Positions 1 through 37,205 of a stretch of DNA of 64,000 nt are shown one piece after another. The stretch lies in assembly GCA_000092065.1 (NCBI GenBank), contig CP000581.1. One strand, 5' to 3'. Source of the DNA: Ostreococcus lucimarinus (taxonomy: Eukaryota). The notes under the pieces were generated by a model. It was given only the letters and a program-made list of their open reading frames with translations, ran no database searches and was not told where the DNA came from. The position numbers and the translations under genes were made by a program. Each line of letters opens with the position of its first letter. Positions within the stretch are counted from its first letter, which is position 1.

Positions 1-599
1 CGACGTGCTCGCGAAGAGGCGGCGACGGATTGGCGTTTGTGATACAAAACGCCGATGGAAGGGCGCTGGGGGGGGGAGGAGGACAGATTGGGTACGGGGG
101 GATCGTGAACTGCGTCGCGGTGGAGTTCGACACGTTTCACGACGCGCATTCGAGAGACCCGTATCATAACCACGTGGCGGTTATGACGCGCGGCGCGAAG
201 GCGCCGGCGTTGGCGACGCACGACGCGGCGATCGGGACGAGCGTGACGGTGCCGAATTTATCCGACGGTGAGCGTCACGTCGTGCGCGTGGTCTACGACC
301 CAGACTTTGTCCCCGAGGACGCGTCGCACAAGAGTTTCCGCGGCGGCGCGTACCTGCTCGATTTGATGCGCGACTACAAGCACGGTTTAGGAACGATGAA
401 AGTCTTCATCGACGATCTCGCCGATCCCGTCTTGACGGTGCCGATCAACTTGGCCGCGTTCATGGACTTGGACAACGGTCGCGCCTGGGTCGGTTTCACC
501 GCCGCGACCGGGCGTTCGATGCAGAACCACGACGTGCAGAGTTTTTCGTTTCGCGAGCGCGTCGGCGGCGGCTTTGTTCCCGGCGTCGCCGTCGCGTGA
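1..599 (+). CDS. Legume-type (L-type) lectin domain protein, 5' partial (continues upstream of window)
   Basis: Open frame from position 3 with no upstream stop. Translation ...GDGLAFVIQNADGRALGGGGGQIGYGGIVNCVAVEFDTFHDAHSRDPYHNHVAVMTRG... matches the legume lectin core (GDGLAFF...VAVEFDT...DP..HIGI). Stop at 597..599. Confidence 0.6.
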   Translation, partial: TCSRRGGDGLAFVIQNADGRALGGGGGQIGYGGIVNCVAVEFDTFHDAHSRDPYHNHVAVMTRGAKAPALATHDAAIGTSVTVPNLSDGERHVVRVVYDPDFVPEDASHKSFRGGAYLLDLMRDYKHGLGTMKVFIDDLADPVLTVPINLAAFMDLDNGRAWVGFTAATGRSMQNHDVQSFSFRERVGGGFVPGVAVA

Positions 600-916
600 T
601 CACCGTCTCCATTCCTGTTGTACAATACCATCGCATCGCACGTGTCGCGTTCGCATCTTTCGCATCCATCGCTCATCTCTCGCGCTCGTCCGTTCGTTCG
701 AGTCCGATCCGATCCTCGTTCGATTCGCCGCGCTCTGACTGTCGAAGTTTCTCGAATCGCGCGCTCGATCGCGATCGCCATTCCGCGCCGCGCCCGCGCG
801 TCTGTCGTCGCCGCGCGCTCGCGCACGACTCGCACTCGCGCGCGCACGGCTCGCGCACGCTCGCGCGCGACTCGCGGAGCGCGAACGCGCGTCGTCGACG
901 CCGCATTCGTCGAAAG

Positions 917-1585
917 ATGGCGACGATGGCGCGCGTCGTCGCGATGGCGTTCGCGACGCTCGCGCTCGTCGCGGGCGCCGACGCGAGCGCGTTCGTCGGC
1001 ACGGACGCGAACTTCGATCGCGAGGTGATGAACTCGGGGAAACACGTCTTCGTGAAGTACCTCGCGCCGTGGTGAGGACACTGCAAGTCGATGAAACCGG
1101 CGTGGGATCGACTTGGGGCGGATTACAAGGACAGCGCGAGCGTGATGATCGTCGACGTGGATTGCACGGCGGAGGGATCTGGAACGTGCGCAAAGGTTGG
1201 AGTGAAGGGATACCCGACGATAAAGTATTACCCGGCGGGGGATAAGAAGGGTAAGGATTACCAGGGCGGACGGGATTACGACGCGTTGAAGTCGTTCGTG
1301 ACGAAGACGCTGGATAAGCCGTTGTGCGACGCGGCGACGAAGAAGGGGTGCGCGAAGAACGAAGTCGAATTCTTGAAGAAGATGGACGGTAAGTCGAAGT
1401 CTGAACTCAAAAGCGAGTTGAAGGAAAAGACTGCCGAGTTGAACGAAATCAAGAAGGAGATGAAGGCGGCGACAAAGGAGTTCAACGCGAAGACGCAAGC
1501 GTGGAAGAAGCGCCAAGCCGTCATAAACCGCGCGAACAAGCTCCTCAACGACCTCATCGCGGCGTCGGACAAGACTGAGCTTTAA
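917..1585 (+). CDS. Selenoprotein: PDI-like ER thioredoxin-fold protein with in-frame UGA (Sec) at 1073..1075 replacing the first Cys of the CGHC active site
   Basis: ORFs 596..1075 and 1091..1585 are in the same frame and separated only by TGA. Read through, it gives MATMARVVAMAFATLALVAG (signal peptide) ...[30 protein letters not shown]..., the canonical thioredoxin/PDI motif (FVxFYAPWCGHCKxLxPxW) with TGA on the first Cys. First in-frame ATG is at 917. C-terminal Lys-rich tail ends in KTEL (KDEL-type ER retrieval). SECIS candidate 1652..1706 lies in the 3' UTR. Confidence 0.75.
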
Positions 1586-1651
1586 AACCGCGGTCATTTA
1601 TCAAGATACGAACCGTTACCACGCGAGTGCGTAGTCCGAAGTTGAGAACAC

Positions 1652-1706
1652 ACGTGACGTTTCGTCTCAAAGATCGCTTTCACGCGATTGAGACGCGACT
1701 GATTTT
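1652..1706 (+). promoter_or_regulatory. Candidate type-II SECIS element in the 3' UTR of the Sec-PDI gene
   Basis: Hand-folded: 5' quartet U1655-G-A-C1658 opposite 3' U1700-G-A-U1703 (tandem G.A/A.G). Helix 2 of about 10 bp (G1659..C1668 with C1699..G1690, one mismatch). Unpaired A1669-A-A-G internal loop. 5-bp ministem AUCGC/GCGAU (1673..1677/1684..1688) with a UUUCAC apical loop. The preceding base is G (GUGA rather than AUGA), a non-canonical variant. Located about 70 nt past the stop codon. Confidence 0.55.
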
Positions 1707-1827
1707 GACAACGGAGGATGAAAAACGCTTCACCGCAACGAATAATCAAGATAAATTTTTCATGTAATGGAAAGAATCAAACAACAATCGCTTATTAGTG
1801 TGTGCCTAGAGTGACTTCGAGTGATCT

Positions 1828-4308
1828 CTATAAGTTGGCGGACTCATCTTCGGAGTCTTGCGCGTGGATGTCGTAAACCTCGCGCACAATCTTCGGACCG
1901 TTGGAAAGGCAAATACCCTGGCGGTCCGCCGTGACAAGGATTGTGTCGTCTTCGTTGAACACACCTCGCAACATCGCATTAGCCAAGGGCTGAATGAGTT
2001 CTCGTTGAATCGCCCGACGCACCGGACGCGCACCGTACGCCGGATCGTATCCTTGTCGCGCCAAGTGCTCGATGGCGCTTCTGTCCAACGAGAGGTTCAT
2101 GCGCTGGGTGTCGATGCGCTGCGACAACTTCTTCGTTTGCAACTGCACAATCTCTTCGATTTGGGCGTGCGTCAACGGCTCAAAAACAATAAACTCGTCG
2201 AGACGGTTGACGAATTCGGGGCGGAAGTGCGAGCGAACGTGCTGCATGACCGCATCCTTGACGTTCACCTTGTTGCGACGCTTGTTGGCGTAGGAAATCT
2301 CATCCGAACCCAAGTTGGAAGTCATGATGATCAAGCAGTTACGGAAAGACACGTTGCGACCTTGCGTGTCGGTGACGTGGCCCTCATCCAGAAGTTGCAA
2401 CAAGACGTTGAAAACGTCCACGTGCGCCTTTTCAATTTCATCAAACAACACGACCGAATACGGTTTTTGACGGACCGCATCCGTCAACATACCGCCCTCG
2501 TCGTAGCCCACGTAGCCCGGAGGGGCGCCGATCAAGCGCGCGACGGAGTGCTTCTCCATGTATTCGCTCATATCAAGACGCACCAGAGCGGTGTCGGAGT
2601 TGAACAAATAGCTCGCCAAGGCTTTGGCGAGCTCCGTCTTACCCACACCAGTCGGGCCGAGGAACATGAAGGACGCCACCGGTCCGTTCGGATCGGCGAG
2701 ATCGGCTCGAGATCGCTGCACCGCCTCCGCGACAGACGTCACCGCGGCTTCTTGTCCGATCACGCGCTGATGAAGCTCGGCCTCGAGTTGCAACAGCTTG
2801 GCCTTCTCGCTCGACACAAGCTTGGCGACAGGCACACCCGTCCAACGGCTCACCACGGCGGCGACGTCGTTGTCGGTGACTTCTTCGCGCATCATGGCGC
2901 CGCCGTCTTTGAGTTCGAGCACGGCTGCCTCAGCCGCGGTGAGTTCATCTTCCGTCGTTTTGACTTGCTGTTCAAGCTTTTTCAATTCAGCTTGAGCGCG
3001 CCCGAGCTCGGCGGCGAGCACGGATCCAGCCTCGGCTTGGGTCGCCTGCGCGATTTTCATCTTGGCGTTTTCAACCTTGCGCTTGATGAAAGAGTTGTTC
3101 GCGTACGCGCGACGGTACTCGTCTTGAATGCGACGCTCCGTGTCATACTTGCTTTGCATCTCCTTGCGAGCCTTCTTCTCCACGCTAAGCGCGGCCGCAA
3201 TCTTCTGCAGCTCGGCGGCGGCGACGTTGGAAGTCCCCGCCTTGGCCAATTCGCCCGCGTTCTTGCGCAAGAGTTGATCGCGCTCCTTTTGAAGCTGCGC
3301 AATCTTGCGGTCCGCCATGTCCAAGCCGTCTGGCTTATGCGTCTTCATCATACGCACCGCAGCCGCGGCTTCATCGAGCAAATCGATCGCCTTATCCGGC
3401 AACTGGCGTCCGGAGACGTAGCGCGCGGATAACTGCGCCGCCGCCAAGAGAGCGCCTTCGCTGATGGCGATGTTGTGATGCTGCTCGTAACGCGGTCGCA
3501 GTCCCCGCAAAATGCTCACCGTATCATCTACGTTTGGTTCCTCCACCGGAACCTGCTGGAATCGGCGCTCTAACGCGGCATCTTGTTCGATAGTCTTCTT
3601 AAACTTGTCCGCCGACGTCGCGCCGACGCACCGAAGCAAGCCTCGCCCGAGGGCGGGTTTGAGAATCGCGGCTCCGTTGTTATTCATCGGCGGCGCCGGG
3701 CAAAGATTGTGAATATCATCGATGAACAACACCACCGGTCCCTTGGCCGTCGCGTCCACGACTTCTTGCACGATAATCGTCAAGCGCTCTTCAAATTCAC
3801 CGGGCATTTGGCACCCCGCGCCGACGGCGCCGAGGTCGACTTCGAGAAGCTTCGCCCCTCGCAGCGCCTGCGGCACGTCGTCGTTGACGATGCGTTGCGC
3901 CAAACCCTCGACGATGGCCGTCTTACCGACCCCAGACTGCCCGAGCAACACGGGGTTGTTCTTCGTTCGTCGACACAAGATGTGAATCAACCGTCGCACC
4001 TCCTCCTCGCGACCGACGAGCGGGTCGAGAAGGCCTCGACGCGCCTCATCCGTCACGTCGGTGCAAAACCGCTCGAGCGCGCTCAACTCCTCGTCCTCGG
4101 GATTTTGTGCACCGTTCTGCTGCTGCTGCATTTGCTGCATTTGTTGCTGCATCTGCCGCATCATCGCGATCTGCGCATCCTCTCTCGCGCTCGCGACGCT
4201 CGGCTTGGCCGCGTCGTCCACCGCGAACGCATTCGCCGCCCCCTGCGCGTCGTAAACCGCGCGTCGCGACATCGTCAGTCTTCGCGTCCACGCGCCGCGT
4301 CGCGCCAC
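1828..4308 (-). CDS. ClpB/Hsp104-family AAA+ disaggregase lacking the Clp-N domain (Hsp78-like), poly-Q near N-terminus
   Basis: 826 aa. NBD1 has LLDPLVGREEEVRRLIHILCRRTKNNPVLLGQSGVGKTAIVEGLAQRIV (Walker A). Middle coiled-coil region present. NBD2 has GPTGVGKTELAKALA and a sensor region. There are about 75 aa before NBD1 (no N-domain), as in mitochondrial Hsp78. MMRQMQQQMQQMQQQQ repeat. The listed start may not be ATG. Confidence 0.85.
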   Translation of the reverse strand: MARRGAWTRRLTMSRRAVYDAQGAANAFAVDDAAKPSVASAREDAQIAMMRQMQQQMQQMQQQQNGAQNPEDEELSALERFCTDVTDEARRGLLDPLVGREEEVRRLIHILCRRTKNNPVLLGQSGVGKTAIVEGLAQRIVNDDVPQALRGAKLLEVDLGAVGAGCQMPGEFEERLTIIVQEVVDATAKGPVVLFIDDIHNLCPAPPMNNNGAAILKPALGRGLLRCVGATSADKFKKTIEQDAALERRFQQVPVEEPNVDDTVSILRGLRPRYEQHHNIAISEGALLAAAQLSARYVSGRQLPDKAIDLLDEAAAAVRMMKTHKPDGLDMADRKIAQLQKERDQLLRKNAGELAKAGTSNVAAAELQKIAAALSVEKKARKEMQSKYDTERRIQDEYRRAYANNSFIKRKVENAKMKIAQATQAEAGSVLAAELGRAQAELKKLEQQVKTTEDELTAAEAAVLELKDGGAMMREEVTDNDVAAVVSRWTGVPVAKLVSSEKAKLLQLEAELHQRVIGQEAAVTSVAEAVQRSRADLADPNGPVASFMFLGPTGVGKTELAKALASYLFNSDTALVRLDMSEYMEKHSVARLIGAPPGYVGYDEGGMLTDAVRQKPYSVVLFDEIEKAHVDVFNVLLQLLDEGHVTDTQGRNVSFRNCLIIMTSNLGSDEISYANKRRNKVNVKDAVMQHVRSHFRPEFVNRLDEFIVFEPLTHAQIEEIVQLQTKKLSQRIDTQRMNLSLDRSAIEHLARQGYDPAYGARPVRRAIQRELIQPLANAMLRGVFNEDDTILVTADRQGICLSNGPKIVREVYDIHAQDSEDESANL

Positions 4309-4336
4309 CGCGCGTCTCGCGCGCGCTCTCCCGCGC

Positions 4337-4350
4337 CTCTCTCTCTCTCT
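4337..4350. repeat. (CT)7 microsatellite in the ClpB / SAMHD1-like divergent intergenic region
   Basis: ctctctctctctct seen directly. Confidence 0.8.
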
Positions 4351-5117
4351 CCCGCGCCTCCTCGCGCTCCCCTACCCCTCGCCGCGCTCGCGCCGCGTCC
4401 CGCTCGACCCGCGGAACCTCGCGGAAGCTCCGATCGCCCCCTACCCCCGCGCCTTCCCACCGCGCGCGCCCCTCCCGCGCCTCGTCCGCGCTCGCACAGC
4501 GTTCAAATCGCGCGCTCGCGTCGTCGACGCACCGCGAGCATGCTCGAGATCGCCGCGCGTATCGCGCGCTGTCGCGCGATTAAAAACGCCACCGTCGTCC
4601 CGAGCGTCGCGAGCGTCACCGCGCGCTGCGTCCTCGCGTCCCGCGCCGCGAAATCGGCGCGCATCGCGGCGAGCATGACGTCGTTCGCGCGTTACCGAGC
4701 GTTCGGCGCGCGCGCGCGTCGCGCGGCGACAAAGTGGCGTCGATCGCGCGCCGCCGCCGGGCGAAAACCCAAACGCTCGAGCGGGCGCGTTCGACCCTGG
4801 ATTTGAAACCACCGCGCGAAACTCGCGAACCTGGCGCCGTCGATCGAACGCGCGTTTTTCGAACCTCGATCGAAACCGGTCGCGTCGACGCCCGCGCGAC
4901 GGCGCGACGGCGCGACACGGCGACGCCGCGCGCGATGGAGACGGACGCGTACGCGACGCCCGAGCGGCGACGCGCGCGGGCGAGCGAACCGTCGACGTCC
5001 GCGGCGCGCGCGCGCGGAAAGACGGGACATCGCGGCGCCGGCGCGTCGCCGAGAGGGCGCGCGGGCGTCAACGGCTCGGAGAGGGACGCGAGGCTCGACG
5101 ACGACAGCGCGGCGCCG

Positions 5118-6632
5118 ATGGACTCGGGGATGGAACTGCGCGCGGAGGACGACGATGATGATCCGTTCATCGCGCAGTTGAGTCAGATCGCGCACGAACC
5201 GCGGGTGCACGTGGGGGAGGAGAACGCGGCGGCGACGGCGTATTGCGCGGGGAGACGGTCGCGAGGAAAGACGTTTAACGATCCCGTGCACGGACACATG
5301 TACTTTAATCCGAAGCTGTGCGATGTGATCGATACGCCGCAAATGCAACGGTTGCGAGAGTTGAAGCAGTTGGGGACGTCGTATTACGTGTTTCCGGGAG
5401 CGGGGCATAACAGGTTCGAGCACTCGTTGGGAACGTGTCACCTGGCGAACACGGTGTTCGAGTCCATCAAGCGCAGCGCGCCCAGGCACGGGTTAGGGCT
5501 GACTGTGGAGGATAAGTTATGCGTGCAACTCGCGGGGCTGTGTCACGACATGGGCCACGGGCCGTTTTCGCACGTGTTCGATAACGAGTTTTTGCCGTTG
5601 AGACACGGTTGGGATCCGAAAGTCGTGGCGCCGTGGAATCACGAGCGCATGGGGGTGGACATGTTTTCTTGGTGCTTAGACGATAACCACATTGATTTAG
5701 AGCCTCAAGTCGTGCGGCGCGTGTGCGATTTCATCACGAGCAACGAGGAAGGAGCGAAGGAGAAGCGATTTTTGTTTGACATCATCGCCAACAAACAAAA
5801 CGGCATCGACGTGGACAAGTTCGAGTACCTGTTGCGAGATTCTTACCAGGCCGGCGTGCGCATGAGCGTGGATACGATGCGATTGACGTCGCACATGAAG
5901 GTGATCGATGACAGGATTTGCTTCAAGTCGAGTGAGGCGAACAACGTGTACGCGTTGTTCCACTCTCGAGCGTCCATGCACCAGAGCGTGTACACGCACA
6001 AAAAGGCCAAGGCGGTGGAATATATGGTGGTCGATGCATTAGTCGAAGCCGACATCGCGTGGAACGGGCGAATTAGCAACTCCATTTGGAGCGTTGAGGA
6101 TTTCATCGCGATGGACGACACGCTGCTCAAACAGATTGAATTTTGTGACGATCCCGCGCTCGCCAAGGCACGAGACATCGTGCGACGCATCCGTCGTCGC
6201 GAGTTGTACCGATTCGTGAATGAATACACCGTGCCCGAGGATCAAGTGGTGGATTTCAAGCCGGTCGAGGCGAAAGACATCACGTCATGCCAAGGAACGA
6301 ACAACATCCCGGGCGGTTTGAAACCAGACGACATCATTGTGCAGTGCCTGAAGATTGATTACGGCCAAAAAGGACACAAAGATCCCGTGGAGAACGTCAG
6401 GTTTTTCCACTACTGGGACGACGAAACCTCGTGCAGCATCGCCAAAGAGCAAATCAGTTCGCTCTTGCCGCGAAATTTCGTCCATCGCGTCGTTCGCGTC
6501 TTCAGTCGCCGCCGCGAACCAGAGTACATCGAAGCCACCGCGCAAGCCTTCTCGAATTTCCAGCGCCGTCAGCTCGGCAAAGAGGCGCAAATCACCCCGG
6601 TGAAGCGCCAGAGATTTTCGAACGATAGCTAA
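5118..6632 (+). CDS. SAMHD1-like HD-domain dNTP triphosphohydrolase
   Basis: FNDPVHGHMYFNPKLCDVIDTPQMQRLRELKQLG...HNRFEHSLGTCHLA...LAGLCHDMGHGPFSH are the HD-domain motifs of the SAMHD1/dGTPase family. ORF track starts at 4734 with GTG. ATG candidates are at 4935 and 5118, so the start is uncertain. Confidence 0.7.
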   Translation: MDSGMELRAEDDDDDPFIAQLSQIAHEPRVHVGEENAAATAYCAGRRSRGKTFNDPVHGHMYFNPKLCDVIDTPQMQRLRELKQLGTSYYVFPGAGHNRFEHSLGTCHLANTVFESIKRSAPRHGLGLTVEDKLCVQLAGLCHDMGHGPFSHVFDNEFLPLRHGWDPKVVAPWNHERMGVDMFSWCLDDNHIDLEPQVVRRVCDFITSNEEGAKEKRFLFDIIANKQNGIDVDKFEYLLRDSYQAGVRMSVDTMRLTSHMKVIDDRICFKSSEANNVYALFHSRASMHQSVYTHKKAKAVEYMVVDALVEADIAWNGRISNSIWSVEDFIAMDDTLLKQIEFCDDPALAKARDIVRRIRRRELYRFVNEYTVPEDQVVDFKPVEAKDITSCQGTNNIPGGLKPDDIIVQCLKIDYGQKGHKDPVENVRFFHYWDDETSCSIAKEQISSLLPRNFVHRVVRVFSRRREPEYIEATAQAFSNFQRRQLGKEAQITPVKRQRFSNDS

Positions 6633-18602: not shown

Positions 18603-18946
18603 CCGAGGGCGGCGAGGAGTGACTGCCGGCACTCGGCGACGCGCGTCGTCGATCGATGCCGCGCGCGCTCGACGCCCCGCTGCTTCGCGAGAACGGCGAC
18701 GACGACGACGACGCGCGCTGCGCGTCGTGAGTCGCGCCGCGCGACGTCGCGCGCGCGAACGACGACGGATCGAGCGACTCGGAATCCGCGCGGTCGGACG
18801 AGGAATACGTTTCGAGACGCGCGCGCGCGGCGACGGGGGCGCGGAGAGTGCGTAAGGTCGCGAACGCGATGTCATCGCAGCGCGTGCTGACGGCGATGGC
18901 GGTGTTGGCGTCGGCGCCGTCGCTCGTGGGGGCGTGATGTTGGCCT

Positions 18947-19399
18947 TTGCTCGTCGGCTCGTTTTTCGGCGCCGCGGCGACGAGCGCAAGCGCCAAACAC
19001 GAATCGCACGCGATTTCCCTGGGGATGAACGCGATGGTGACGACGCTCGCCACGGTGGCGAGCGCGAGGAAAGCGCGCGGGCGTCGGGGGAACGCGTGGC
19101 GCGTGTACGGACCGACGGCGACGACGGCGGCGAGCGTCGCGCTTCTGTGCGCCGACCCGATGCGACACGTGCTTCAGGATCACGAATTGTGGACGACGAA
19201 CAGCGCGATGTATCGTCCAGGGTGCGAGCACGGCGATATTCGATGTTTGAGCGTCGTGGGGTGGGTGTTCTTGACGTGCACGTACCTCGGATTTGCGTGC
19301 TTAATAGTCGGCGCGCTTTGGAACGCCGACGCGCTCGGCAAACTCGGGCGCGAGTTCCGTCGCAGGTTGGAGGGCGATGATGCAGATTTCGAGGCGTAG
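18947..19399 (+). CDS. Hypothetical small membrane protein (weak)
   Basis: 150-aa ORF with GC3-rich codon usage and two hydrophobic segments. No recognisable family. Could be non-coding. Confidence 0.2.
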   Translation: MLVGSFFGAAATSASAKHESHAISLGMNAMVTTLATVASARKARGRRGNAWRVYGPTATTAASVALLCADPMRHVLQDHELWTTNSAMYRPGCEHGDIRCLSVVGWVFLTCTYLGFACLIVGALWNADALGKLGREFRRRLEGDDADFEA

Positions 19400-19596
19400 A
19401 CGCGAGAAATCGATGAGCGACCGGAAGGCGACGATGACGTGACGCGAGCGCGCGAATGTTGGTTCTGGACCAGCGGCGCGATCGTCGATGAAAAGTCGTC
19501 GTCTCACCGTCGTAGATATGTATGTTGTAACTTCTACCGCCTACTTTATGTGTACAAAAATGTATCTCGTGTGTCACCGGTGTAATCGAACTCATC

Positions 19597-20817
19597 CTAC
19601 TGCCGTTGTCGTTTTTCCGGAGGCGTGGCTTCGACGAATTCGTCGTGCGCCCAGTCGTCGTTGTCATTCAAAACCGTCGTAGCCGCGTCGTTGGGTGCCT
19701 CTCGCCCCCACGGTCGACTCGGCGCGTCGACACCGCCGCCGACTTCTCGCTGCGACGCGTTCTCGCTATCAGGCACCGCGCTCCAAGGCTGACTTCCTAA
19801 CGGCGCGTTTTGAAGCGGCGCCGGCGCCTCGACGCGCGGCTGCTCGCATTGGCTCGGTTCCACCGCTGACGCGTCCTCGGGAGGAAGCATGGACGCCAAC
19901 ACGAGTTCAGCTTCGAAATCGACGCTCGCGGGCGCGGTGGTGTGCTGCGGCTGGTTCCCGAACGCGTCGCGTTGATGAAACATTTTGAAATCCGCCGTCG
20001 GCTTCACCACCACCGGCGCGCCCGCCTGCGCGCAATAAATCGCCACATCCACGTCCGAACTCTCGCACAGTTGAACGATGCTGCGCAAATCCTTCAAATT
20101 CACCGTCACCTCCACCGGCGCCGCCGCGGTGTTTCTATAAAACAAAATCGATTCGTCGTCGCGTCTCAACGAAATGCTCGTCTGCAACGCCTGACTCAAC
20201 CCCCCTCCCGGACTCAAATAACTCGACAGCGTCACGATCTTCGCCGCTCCCGCCGCGTCCCCGTCCACGCACACGTCCGATTCGATCCCGCACGTCAGCG
20301 TCACGTCCTCTCTCGCCGCGCTCGAAAAGTGCGCCAACAGCGTCAGCAGCGTCTTCGCCCTGCTCACCACCTTCGCCGGCATCGCCTCCGCGTCGATCTC
20401 CGCGTCGACGTGTTCCGCGTCCATCACCTCGTGCATCTCATACGTCTTCTTCGTGCCGCTCTTCGCGCTCGTCGTCGTCACTCGCAGTCGTCGCGCCTCT
20501 CGTCCCTCGTCGTCTTCGTCGTCCAGCGTCACGACGACGACGTCCGCGCGCGCGTGCGACCGCAGCGACGCCATCACGTGCTTCGCCAGCGCGCACGTCT
20601 GCGCGCGTCCTCCGCGCGCGGTTATCTCTCGCGCGTCGAACGCGCTCGCCCGCACGGCGACGCGCGCGAACGCCGAGCGCGCGGCGTTGACGGATTTCAG
20701 CGTCAGCGTCTCGTCGCGCGCGCTCGCGTCGATCAGCACCTCGGGACCGACGCGCGACAGGAACGCGATCGAGCGATGGAGCGCTCGCAGGGAGCCGCCG
20801 GAGACGGCGAGCTCCAT
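19597..20817 (-). CDS. RAD9: Cell-cycle checkpoint protein RAD9 (9-1-1 clamp subunit)
   Basis: N-terminus MELAVSGGSLRALHRSIAFLSRVGPEVLIDASARDETLTLKSVNAARSAFA aligns with human RAD9A [49 protein letters not shown]. PCNA-like fold length with a disordered acidic C-terminal tail. Confidence 0.75.
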   Translation of the reverse strand: MELAVSGGSLRALHRSIAFLSRVGPEVLIDASARDETLTLKSVNAARSAFARVAVRASAFDAREITARGGRAQTCALAKHVMASLRSHARADVVVVTLDDEDDEGREARRLRVTTTSAKSGTKKTYEMHEVMDAEHVDAEIDAEAMPAKVVSRAKTLLTLLAHFSSAAREDVTLTCGIESDVCVDGDAAGAAKIVTLSSYLSPGGGLSQALQTSISLRRDDESILFYRNTAAAPVEVTVNLKDLRSIVQLCESSDVDVAIYCAQAGAPVVVKPTADFKMFHQRDAFGNQPQHTTAPASVDFEAELVLASMLPPEDASAVEPSQCEQPRVEAPAPLQNAPLGSQPWSAVPDSENASQREVGGGVDAPSRPWGREAPNDAATTVLNDNDDWAHDEFVEATPPEKRQRQ

Positions 20818-32220: not shown

Positions 32221-32592
32221 GATCAACGCCTCAACCTCCGCCGAGTTCCCGCCGACCGCGGCGAGCTGCGATCGAATGAGCTCGTCGCGATCGTCGAGCG
32301 CCTTCCCCACCGGCCCGAACACCGTCTTATCGAGGATCGTCATCAGCAGCAAAAATTCCGTCGCGATGATCGGCAGCGTGAGATCGAAGTCGAACAGCTT
32401 CCCCGCCTCGGCGTGCGCCGCCGGGACCGCGCACGCGATCTGCGCCGCGAGCGTCATCGCGGGGAGCTTGACGCGATCGACGACGTCGGCGACGCGCGCC
32501 TTGACGGCGGTCGCGCGCGTCGCCGCGCGCTTGCTCGGCGCGGGCGCCTTCGCGGCGGTGATTCGGATCGCGCGGGCGGCGACGAGGGACAT
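32221..32592 (-). CDS. ATPG: ATPG exon 1 (transit peptide plus membrane anchor)
   Basis: ATG at 32592 gives MSLVAARAIRITAAKAPAPSKRAATRATAVKARVADVVDRVKLPAMTLAAQIACAVPAAHAEAGKLFDFDLTLPIIATEFLLLMTILDKTVFGPVGKALDDRDELIRSQLAAVGGNSAEVEALI. GKLFDFDLTLP...FLLLM...LDDRD is the hallmark b' (atpG) motif. Joined protein is 204 aa. Confidence 0.65.
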
Positions 32593-36077: not shown

Positions 36078-37205
36078 CTAGTCCGGCGTGAGGAGTTCAG
36101 ATTCGCCGCCCCGCGCGCCGCCTCCAGGTTCGACTTCCAACGGAGGTGCGGTCGGTGACGCCATCGACGGTGCGACGTAATCATCGCGACCGAAATCGGC
36201 TTTCGCATCGTTCCCACTCTTGTAATGCGATTCTTCGTCCGACGTCTCCACTCCTAGAGGCACGCCGTGCGTGCGTAAATATTCCGCCAGCGTGAAATGA
36301 TTATATTTCCCCGCGATATCGACCGCGGTTCGCCCTCGAACGTCTCTCGCGGCTGGATTTGCGCCGAGCACTAGTAACTTTTTGCACGTCGCCTTGTTCC
36401 CGTTCGCGGCGGCGATCATGAGCAACGTCTGCTCATCGCTCGTCTCGTCGCGCGCGTCAACGTCTAAGCCCTCGGCATCGACCAAACGTTCCATTTCGTA
36501 CGTACGATTCAGTTTGCACGCCCGAATCGCCGCCGTCATGACCTCGGCCTCTCGCGCGAACGGCGACGACGACGCGCGCGAGCCGCTCTCTGTGCGCGAA
36601 CTGGACAGCCGCGCGCCGGCGTCGAACGCGCTCGCGCCGATCCACTCCGTGTCGTCGCTGAACGTGTCTATCGCGGGATTGTTCAAAATCTCCAAAAGCT
36701 GCCCTGCGACCGTACCGATGGACATGATTTCATCGCACAACGCGTACGCCTCTTTCAAATCGGCGCCGCGCTCGACGTCTCGCGCAAACGTCTCGTAATC
36801 CATATCGCCAATAATCTCCGACCGCTCCTCATCGAACGACGTCATCAAAAACGCAAACACCGACCGTATTTCCTCATCCGACAACCTCTTCCATCGCACC
36901 GTCCGCGTCAGCCGATCGATCACCGCGTCCAGTCGCGTCGGCGTCCACAGCGCGCCGCATCGAACGCTCGCGCACGCCCGCCAAAAATCACACAATCGCA
37001 CCGTCCCGCGCCCGAACTGATCGCACATCGCGTGAAACCGTCGAAACACCACCGAACGCTCCCAGTCATCGCGTCCGAGCCCCAACGCGCGCGCCATCAC
37101 GCGCTTCTCCAATTTCGCCTCCGCGCTCCCGAACCCGTCCCGAACGACCGCGCGCAGGATTATTCCCGGTTTCGTCGCCCCCCGCGGTCGCAGCGCGGCG
37201 TACAT
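36078..37205 (-). CDS. Ankyrin-repeat protein
   Basis: C-terminal ANK repeats (TLLMIAAANGNKATCKKLLVLGANPAARDVRGRTAVDIAGKYNHFTLAEYLRTHG). Listed ORF start 37331 is GTG. First ATG at 37205 (MYAALRPRG...). The N-terminal domain is unassigned. Confidence 0.5.
   Translation of the reverse strand: MYAALRPRGATKPGIILRAVVRDGFGSAEAKLEKRVMARALGLGRDDWERSVVFRRFHAMCDQFGRGTVRLCDFWRACASVRCGALWTPTRLDAVIDRLTRTVRWKRLSDEEIRSVFAFLMTSFDEERSEIIGDMDYETFARDVERGADLKEAYALCDEIMSIGTVAGQLLEILNNPAIDTFSDDTEWIGASAFDAGARLSSSRTESGSRASSSPFAREAEVMTAAIRACKLNRTYEMERLVDAEGLDVDARDETSDEQTLLMIAAANGNKATCKKLLVLGANPAARDVRGRTAVDIAGKYNHFTLAEYLRTHGVPLGVETSDEESHYKSGNDAKADFGRDDYVAPSMASPTAPPLEVEPGGGARGGESELLTPD

Follow-up and report, generated by a model that had tools for sequence, protein, structure and literature searches.

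Selenocysteine (Sec)-containing members of the protein disulfide isomerase (PDI) family have been described from marine algae. In Emiliania huxleyi, EhSEP2 (BAD98262.1), a protein with a single thioredoxin (Trx) domain and a -UGHC- redox motif, is the most abundant 75Se-labelled protein of the alga, and in Ostreococcus tauri 75Se is incorporated into many proteins. Lobanov et al. 2007 (PMC2375036, Genome Biol 8:R198) counted 26 selenoproteins for O. tauri and 29 for O. lucimarinus, three of them PDI homologues in each of the two species, and Jiang et al. 2020 listed PDI_a as one of the Sec proteins that occur most widely in algae.

We analysed a 64-kb stretch of O. lucimarinus CCE9901 DNA (the whole of which is called the window), near the start of which a Sec-containing PDI-like gene had been predicted. 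Very probably, this gene encodes a secretory-pathway single-Trx oxidoreductase of the EhSEP2/PDI_a type, with a UGA codon that is decoded as Sec through a form-2 SECIS. The predicted protein shares with EhSEP2 the one Trx domain and the -UGHC- motif with Sec at the first Cys position; EhSEP2, however, belongs to a haptophyte, and hence to another phylum, and direct labelling with Se is EhSEP2's alone. The Sec-PDI of O. lucimarinus and O. tauri in Lobanov et al. 2007 is the same gene, with a matching start (by residue numbering) and a matching SECIS type. Supplement 2 of that paper prints this O. lucimarinus protein with U, aligned to Sec-containing versions from E. huxleyi, O. tauri and T. pseudonana, so that the original prediction, which had assigned the protein to a class known in marine algae, is borne out down to the exact sequence. 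The gene was thus already published in 2007 as a Sec-PDI, and its recognition here is a correct call, not a discovery. Biologically, nothing is added to the published O. lucimarinus selenoproteome; our analysis extends the published Sec-PDI with a broad metagenomic comparison, counts of covarying pairs, dN/dS values, and the finding that an intron of sister clades is absent here. The locus also serves as a positive control, in that a genuine selenoprotein gene and its SECIS were recovered from raw sequence alone.

The coding frame, its TGA codon and the encoded protein

The features of the coding region are as follows.

917..1585, + strand: Sec PDI-like coding sequence, intronless and complete, 222 codons including the predicted Sec 53, then TAA at 1583-1585
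917..985, + strand: predicted signal peptide, residues 1-23
998..1303, + strand: thioredoxin-fold catalytic domain of the ERp46/TXNDC5 type, residues 28-129 (Pfam PF00085)
1073..1075, + strand: predicted UGA codon for Sec 53, with which the U-G-H-C redox motif at 1073-1084 begins
1319..1570, + strand: C-terminal extension, in which a CX7C Cys pair (C137/C145) precedes a long helical region rich in Lys and Glu (alignment and AF2)
1571..1582, + strand: C-terminal KTEL, candidate ER-retrieval tetrapeptide (translation)

The ORF listing contains two ORFs in the same frame, 596..1075 and 1091..1585, and the TGA at 1073-1075 is the only internal stop in the translation of 917-1588; the listing and the translation together bear out the prediction of one frame split by a single TGA. 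Translation likewise confirmed that the ATG at 917 is the first of the frame and that the protein ends in KTEL, as had been proposed: the product begins with MATMARVV and ends with SDKTEL. The start at 917 agrees with the residue numbering (D22) in supplement 2 of Lobanov et al. 2007, and the orthologues, after splicing, have 222-235 amino acids in a frame that is shared with the window gene.

To place the TGA in a wider context, we compared 91 related loci, taken as DNA from genomes and metagenomes; the motif is present in 87 of these, with identities to the window of 41-98%. At the Sec position, 86 of the 87 motif-bearing loci have TGA and one has TGT. TGC or TGT in close orthologues had been named in advance as the mark of a pseudogene, and it is TGA that the relatives keep. 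The upstream residues FVK[FY]LAPW are retained in frame in every intronless locus. Full-length homologues with Cys at the aligned position read APWCGHC, and CGHC is seen there in P0031, P0034, P0107, P0110, P0112, P0096, P0118 and P0098; APWWGHC in P0077, P0102 and P0114 is a TGA translated as Trp by a pipeline. In the alignment of Lobanov et al. 2007 (supplement 2), U occupies this position in EhSEP2 of E. huxleyi, in O. tauri and in T. pseudonana. Hence the alignment to Sec and Cys homologues, a check that had been named beforehand, pairs the U with the Cys of CGHC or with Sec, and the claim that the TGA falls on the first Cys of the CGHC motif is upheld by the Cys-form homologues as well as by the Pfam Thioredoxin match. 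Judged from its sequence, the locus is a genuine selenoprotein gene in which Sec would replace the active-site Cys.

Selection on the two flanks of the TGA was measured against three other Ostreococcus lineages. We obtained a dN/dS of 0.23-0.44 upstream of the TGA, a value that covers 52 codons and includes the fast-evolving signal peptide, versus 0.07-0.13 downstream, with dS of approximately 1. Purifying selection therefore acts on both sides of the TGA while synonymous sites are near saturation, and a nonsense lesion would not have survived such divergence.

A further observation comes from the gene structure in sister clades. A phase-2 intron, 135-243 nt long, splits the Trp codon one base ahead of the TGA in O. 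tauri and in two or more further Ostreococcus clades. Its borders are GTGCGT or GTACG...AG, and splicing yields exactly W-U-G-H-C in frame. Examples are:

L001, 2847-2981: Trp-codon intron, 135 nt, Ostreococcus clade
L004, 2787-2981: Trp-codon intron, 195 nt, O. tauri GCA_002158475.1
L005, 2739-2981: Trp-codon intron, 243 nt, Ostreococcus clade

The intron is absent from the O. lucimarinus window (1070-1075), from the near-identical metagenomic loci L007 and L022, and from Micromonas- and Bathycoccus-like loci. The precise splice onto the TGA in the sister clades independently confirms how the exon joins the downstream frame.

With U read as C, the protein matches Pfam Thioredoxin (PF00085) over residues 28-129 with E = 2.1e-26 and 92 bits (cut-off 23.5), and this is the only Trx domain that Pfam finds in the 222 residues. 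The closest relatives of this domain in the PDB are the catalytic domains of TXNDC5/ERp46 and PDIA6/P5, with TXNDC5 as the top sequence match. The AF2 model of the Cys homologue P0031 (pLDDT 89) superimposes on the second Trx domain of ERp46 with TM 0.90-0.91 and rmsd 1.3-1.6 (Foldseek), and the UGHC motif sits at the start of helix 2 of the fold. Invariant in the homologue alignment are a second Cys pair (C83/C91), the cis-Pro segment Y99-P100-T101 and R119 (in G-R-D); the cis-Pro loop and the conserved Arg align to TXNDC5. The Trx domains of the human proteins are the best matches, with up to 41% identity in fold alignments and TM 0.9, and they share a CGHC-type motif, the extra Cys pair (VDCT...C), the cis-Pro YPT and the conserved Arg. 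They differ from the algal protein in having Cys and not Sec and in domain composition, with three tandem Trx domains in ERp46 and an a0-a-b arrangement in P5, and they are without the CX7C-plus-long-helix extension at the C-terminus.

This C-terminal extension, a CX7C pair and a helix of about 60 residues, found no counterpart in Pfam or the PDB. The counterparts of C137 and C145 in P0031 (C131 and C139) are invariant in the homologue alignment, and the AF2 model of P0031 has helices at 141-150 and 155-214 with pLDDT above 90. The extension has been retained in green algae, haptophytes and others.

At the N-terminus, the predicted signal peptide consists of a basic n-region, the hydrophobic stretch AMAFATLALVAG and A-D-A before the predicted cut. 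The N-termini of the orthologues keep a signal-like character despite low identity, with AxA sites ADA/SAF, AEA/SAF and AHA/GAF (cut at the slash), and the N-terminus is disordered in the AF2 model of the homologue. At the C-terminus, orthologues end in KSEL, NAEL, KDEL, KEEL, REEL or KAEL; some Micromonas- or Bathycoccus-like relatives are without the -EL end and terminate in TAAA or KAAK. KTEL presumably lies outside the strict PROSITE KDEL pattern; it is also used by the PDI-family protein AGR2. Given the hydrophobic N-terminus with its A-D-A site and the KTEL end, we infer that the protein would reside in the ER.

The original prediction also held that ORF-based annotation truncates the gene, which proved to be the case. 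Our homologue search returned mainly proteins of 164 residues, all of which start at the Met six codons after the TGA (Met 59), and on 767 contigs the O. lucimarinus ORF at 1091-1582 appears as a protein of 164 residues named "hypothetical protein" or "PDIA6". The O. tauri model P0044 (L004 3001-3599, GCA_002158475.1) starts at the Met after the Sec as well. The last ~85 residues of P0044 diverge from the uninterrupted frame, which runs on to NAEL. The public 164-residue fragment, to which P0044 and hundreds of metagenomic gene calls belong, is without the active site, and it could mislead domain-based or redox-motif surveys.

The SECIS element in the 3' UTR

The element downstream of the gene consists of the following parts.

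1635..1716, + strand: form-2 (type II) SECIS in the 3' UTR (MFE folds and leave-one-out covariance model)
1635-1638, + strand: outer stem, 5' arm
1641-1644 / 1709-1712, + strand: helix I, GUUG/CAAC by homology (MFE alternative 1641-1647 / 1703-1709)
1654..1658, + strand: 5' side of the core, unpaired G1654 and then quartet UGA-C (U1655-C1658); GTGAC invariant in 11 Ostreococcus orthologues
1659-1668 / 1690-1699, + strand: helix II, 10 pairs with one U.C mismatch
1669-1671, + strand: unpaired AAA bulge, 11 nt after UGA
1672-1677 / 1684-1689, + strand: mini-stem (helix III), 6 bp
1678-1683, + strand: apical loop, 6 nt
1700..1703, + strand: 3' side of the core, quartet U-GA-U; TGAT invariant in 11 Ostreococcus orthologues

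The prediction of a form-2 SECIS in the 3' UTR is supported at the claimed site by folds, by covariation and by a covariance model. Its position was correctly given, and only the distance needs adjustment, as the core begins 68 nt after the stop and not 70 nt. The internal loop on the 5' side ends in G1654. In MFE folds, the orthologous 3' UTRs share the SECIS architecture and differ in the sequence of helix I (GCGUUCG/CGAACGC, AGUCGA/UCGACU or CGUCG/CGACG). The unpaired AAA of the window corresponds to UCA, GCA, ACA or UAA in the orthologues, where the last A alone is invariant.

Covariation was assessed within Ostreococcus, where the 11 distinct versions of the element show 96% of cells paired in helices II and III and two-sided compensatory changes in 7 of 16 pairs; the model trained on Ostreococcus caught only 2-3 SECIS elements of the Micromonas/Bathycoccus type. 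In helix III, four of the six pairs carry compensatory changes among these 11 versions. Controls with slid 3' partners gave only 26-38% pairing, and the observed covariation score was reached by none of 500 shuffles. A covariance model built from 10 orthologues, with the window left out, recovered 1633-1726 at 64 bits (E ~4e-18), and over the rest of the 64-kb window the same model found nothing better than E = 1.2.

The failure to find a stable SECIS fold would have spoken against the prediction; instead, the local MFE fold gives the SECIS shape, and the 95-nt SECIS fold is modestly more stable than shuffles (z = -1.7). For the full 245-nt UTR, stability does not exceed that of shuffles (z = -0.08). 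Scanning both strands with a SECIS pattern returned 7 matches, compared with a mean of 1.75 in 20 shuffles, and two of the matches, the present site and one more, proved to be real elements. The other five (at 32367 and 42973, and at 36910, 32225 and 6853 on the minus strand) were rejected, as they are without the combination of G before UGA and a UTR context; their number is roughly that seen in shuffles, and the one that was folded had no SECIS shape. A search that took, locus by locus, the stablest hairpin following an RTGA picked mostly GC-rich coding sequence and was dropped.

Lobanov et al. 2007 (PMC2375036) found G directly before the quartet in every SECIS of O. tauri and O. lucimarinus with a single exception per species, and a long mini-stem in nearly every O. 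tauri element, which a figure legend calls characteristic of both species. With its unpaired G1654 and long apical mini-stem, the window SECIS is of this Ostreococcus type, and the description of its GUGA core as a less common variant was mistaken, since G before the quartet is the norm in Ostreococcus. Compared with the canonical form-2 SECIS (AUGA_AA_GA; Rfam SECIS_1), the window element shares helix I, the internal loop, the UGA/GA quartet, the 10-bp helix II, unpaired A's 11 nt after UGA and the extra apical mini-stem, but it has G and not A before the quartet and one invariant unpaired A, and the Rfam models miss it.

Indeed, when 1-6000 and, separately, 1586-1830 were scanned with Rfam 15, no SECIS family was hit, even with matches up to E<=10 allowed. 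The Rfam SECIS seed is dominated by animal AUGA-type elements, and to this composition we attribute the missing of the Ostreococcus SECIS. Given the covariation and the literature, we take the miss as a limit of the library and not as counter-evidence.

Readings of the TGA codon and the proposed mechanism

The TGA might be a true stop, in which case the locus would be a pseudogene or would encode a 52-residue peptide, with the downstream frame as a decaying remnant. Gene callers behave as if this were so, ending at 1075 and restarting at Met 59, and the silence of Rfam at the 3' UTR points the same way. Against this stand the retention of TGA in 86 of 87 loci across lineages with saturated synonymous sites, the strong purifying selection on either side of it, the covarying SECIS 3' of the gene and the publication of the gene as a selenoprotein (Lobanov et al. 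2007), and we hold a true stop to be extremely improbable. It has hardly more chance that the locus yields two products, one ending at 1075 and a separate protein from ATG 1091 with a Trx fold that has no redox motif. Such a protein would correspond to the 164-residue ATG-start ORF that gene callers report on hundreds of contigs under the name "protein disulfide-isomerase A6" or as a "hypothetical protein", but it would be without strands 1-2, the active site and the signal peptide. Moreover, the GHCKS codons between the TGA and the ATG, together with the 52 upstream codons, are conserved in frame, and splicing in the sister species joins the upstream exon exactly to the TGA.

Translation may also continue through the UGA with insertion of Cys or Trp by a near-cognate tRNA instead of Sec. 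The inserted amino acid is not evident from the window, and the codon comes out as W in some pipeline translations (P0077, P0102); nevertheless, a conserved SECIS of the Ostreococcus-specific form stands in the right place, O. tauri puts 75Se into many proteins and the Emiliania orthologue EhSEP2 is 75Se-labelled. A single TGA-to-TGY change would give Cys, yet it is seen in only 1 of the 87 loci. Read-through of this kind is, in our estimation, very improbable, and the pseudogene, the two products and non-Sec read-through together account for only a small remainder of the probability.

We infer that Se is actually incorporated into this protein. With the UGA read as Sec, the form-2 SECIS at ~1635-1716 would direct the decoding of UGA 1073-1075, presumably by the usual eukaryotic route of SBP2, eEFSec and tRNA-Sec; a tRNA scan of the 64-kb window found no tRNA, and neither tRNA-Sec nor other Sec machinery lies in the window. 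In PDI chemistry, an exposed Cys nucleophile attacks the substrate disulfide and the second Cys resolves the intermediate. By analogy, the U-G-H-C redox centre would lie at the N-terminus of helix 2 in an ERp46-like Trx fold, where Sec 53 may act, in place of Cys, as the surface-exposed nucleophile on substrate disulfides, and Cys 56 would resolve the mixed selenenylsulfide. The selenol would be expected to speed thiol-disulfide exchange. The signal peptide and the C-terminal KTEL would put the protein in the ER, and the catalytic domain would be followed by the conserved CX7C and the long helix. That this C-terminal module has a role beyond generic disulfide exchange, for example in oligomerisation or in docking to a specific ER client or peroxidase, is a speculative and rather unlikely proposal, and the same holds for the related idea that Sec decoding is made more or less efficient by the clade-variable intron 1 nt before the UGA.

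A second selenoprotein gene and the neighbouring loci

The window contains a second selenoprotein gene on the + strand, with an ATG at 18869, an in-frame TGA at 18935-18937 and a TAG at 19397-19399. Its product is hydrophobic, with the Sec context SLVGA-U-CWPLLVGSFF, and the SECIS-pattern scan located its SECIS at ~19439-19489 (+), which is GUGA-type and has a 10-bp helix I. Three relatives, down to 44% identity, retain both the TGA and a GUGA-type SECIS, and a MerC-like Pfam match (E = 2e-4) falls below the cut-off. Lobanov et al. 2007 (PMC2375036) show this gene in their supplement 2 as MSP, a "membrane selenoprotein"; thus the MSP gene at 18869-19399 is also already known. The species assignment of the window is supported by the ORF at 19600-20817 (-), whose product shows no difference from XP_001415745.1 of O. 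lucimarinus CCE9901 over 406 residues.

The Sec-PDI gene is flanked by a gene for an L-type lectin (ERGIC-53/VIP36-like) at 30-599 (+), which is cut by the start of the window, and by a gene for a ClpB-type AAA+ chaperone at 1828-4308 (-). The order lectin-PDI-ClpB is kept in all Ostreococcus loci compared. In Micromonas-like loci, a second strong GUGA-type SECIS-like hairpin lies just upstream of the PDI gene, at the following positions:

L008, ~82-160: upstream SECIS-like hairpin
L028-L033, ~272-350: upstream SECIS-like hairpin
L046, L048, L068 and L070: upstream SECIS-like hairpin also present

This hairpin presumably belongs to the 3' UTR of a neighbouring selenoprotein gene. Jiang et al. 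2020 reported a SELENOF-PDI_a cluster for Mamiellales, which the upstream hairpin of the Micromonas-like loci would fit.
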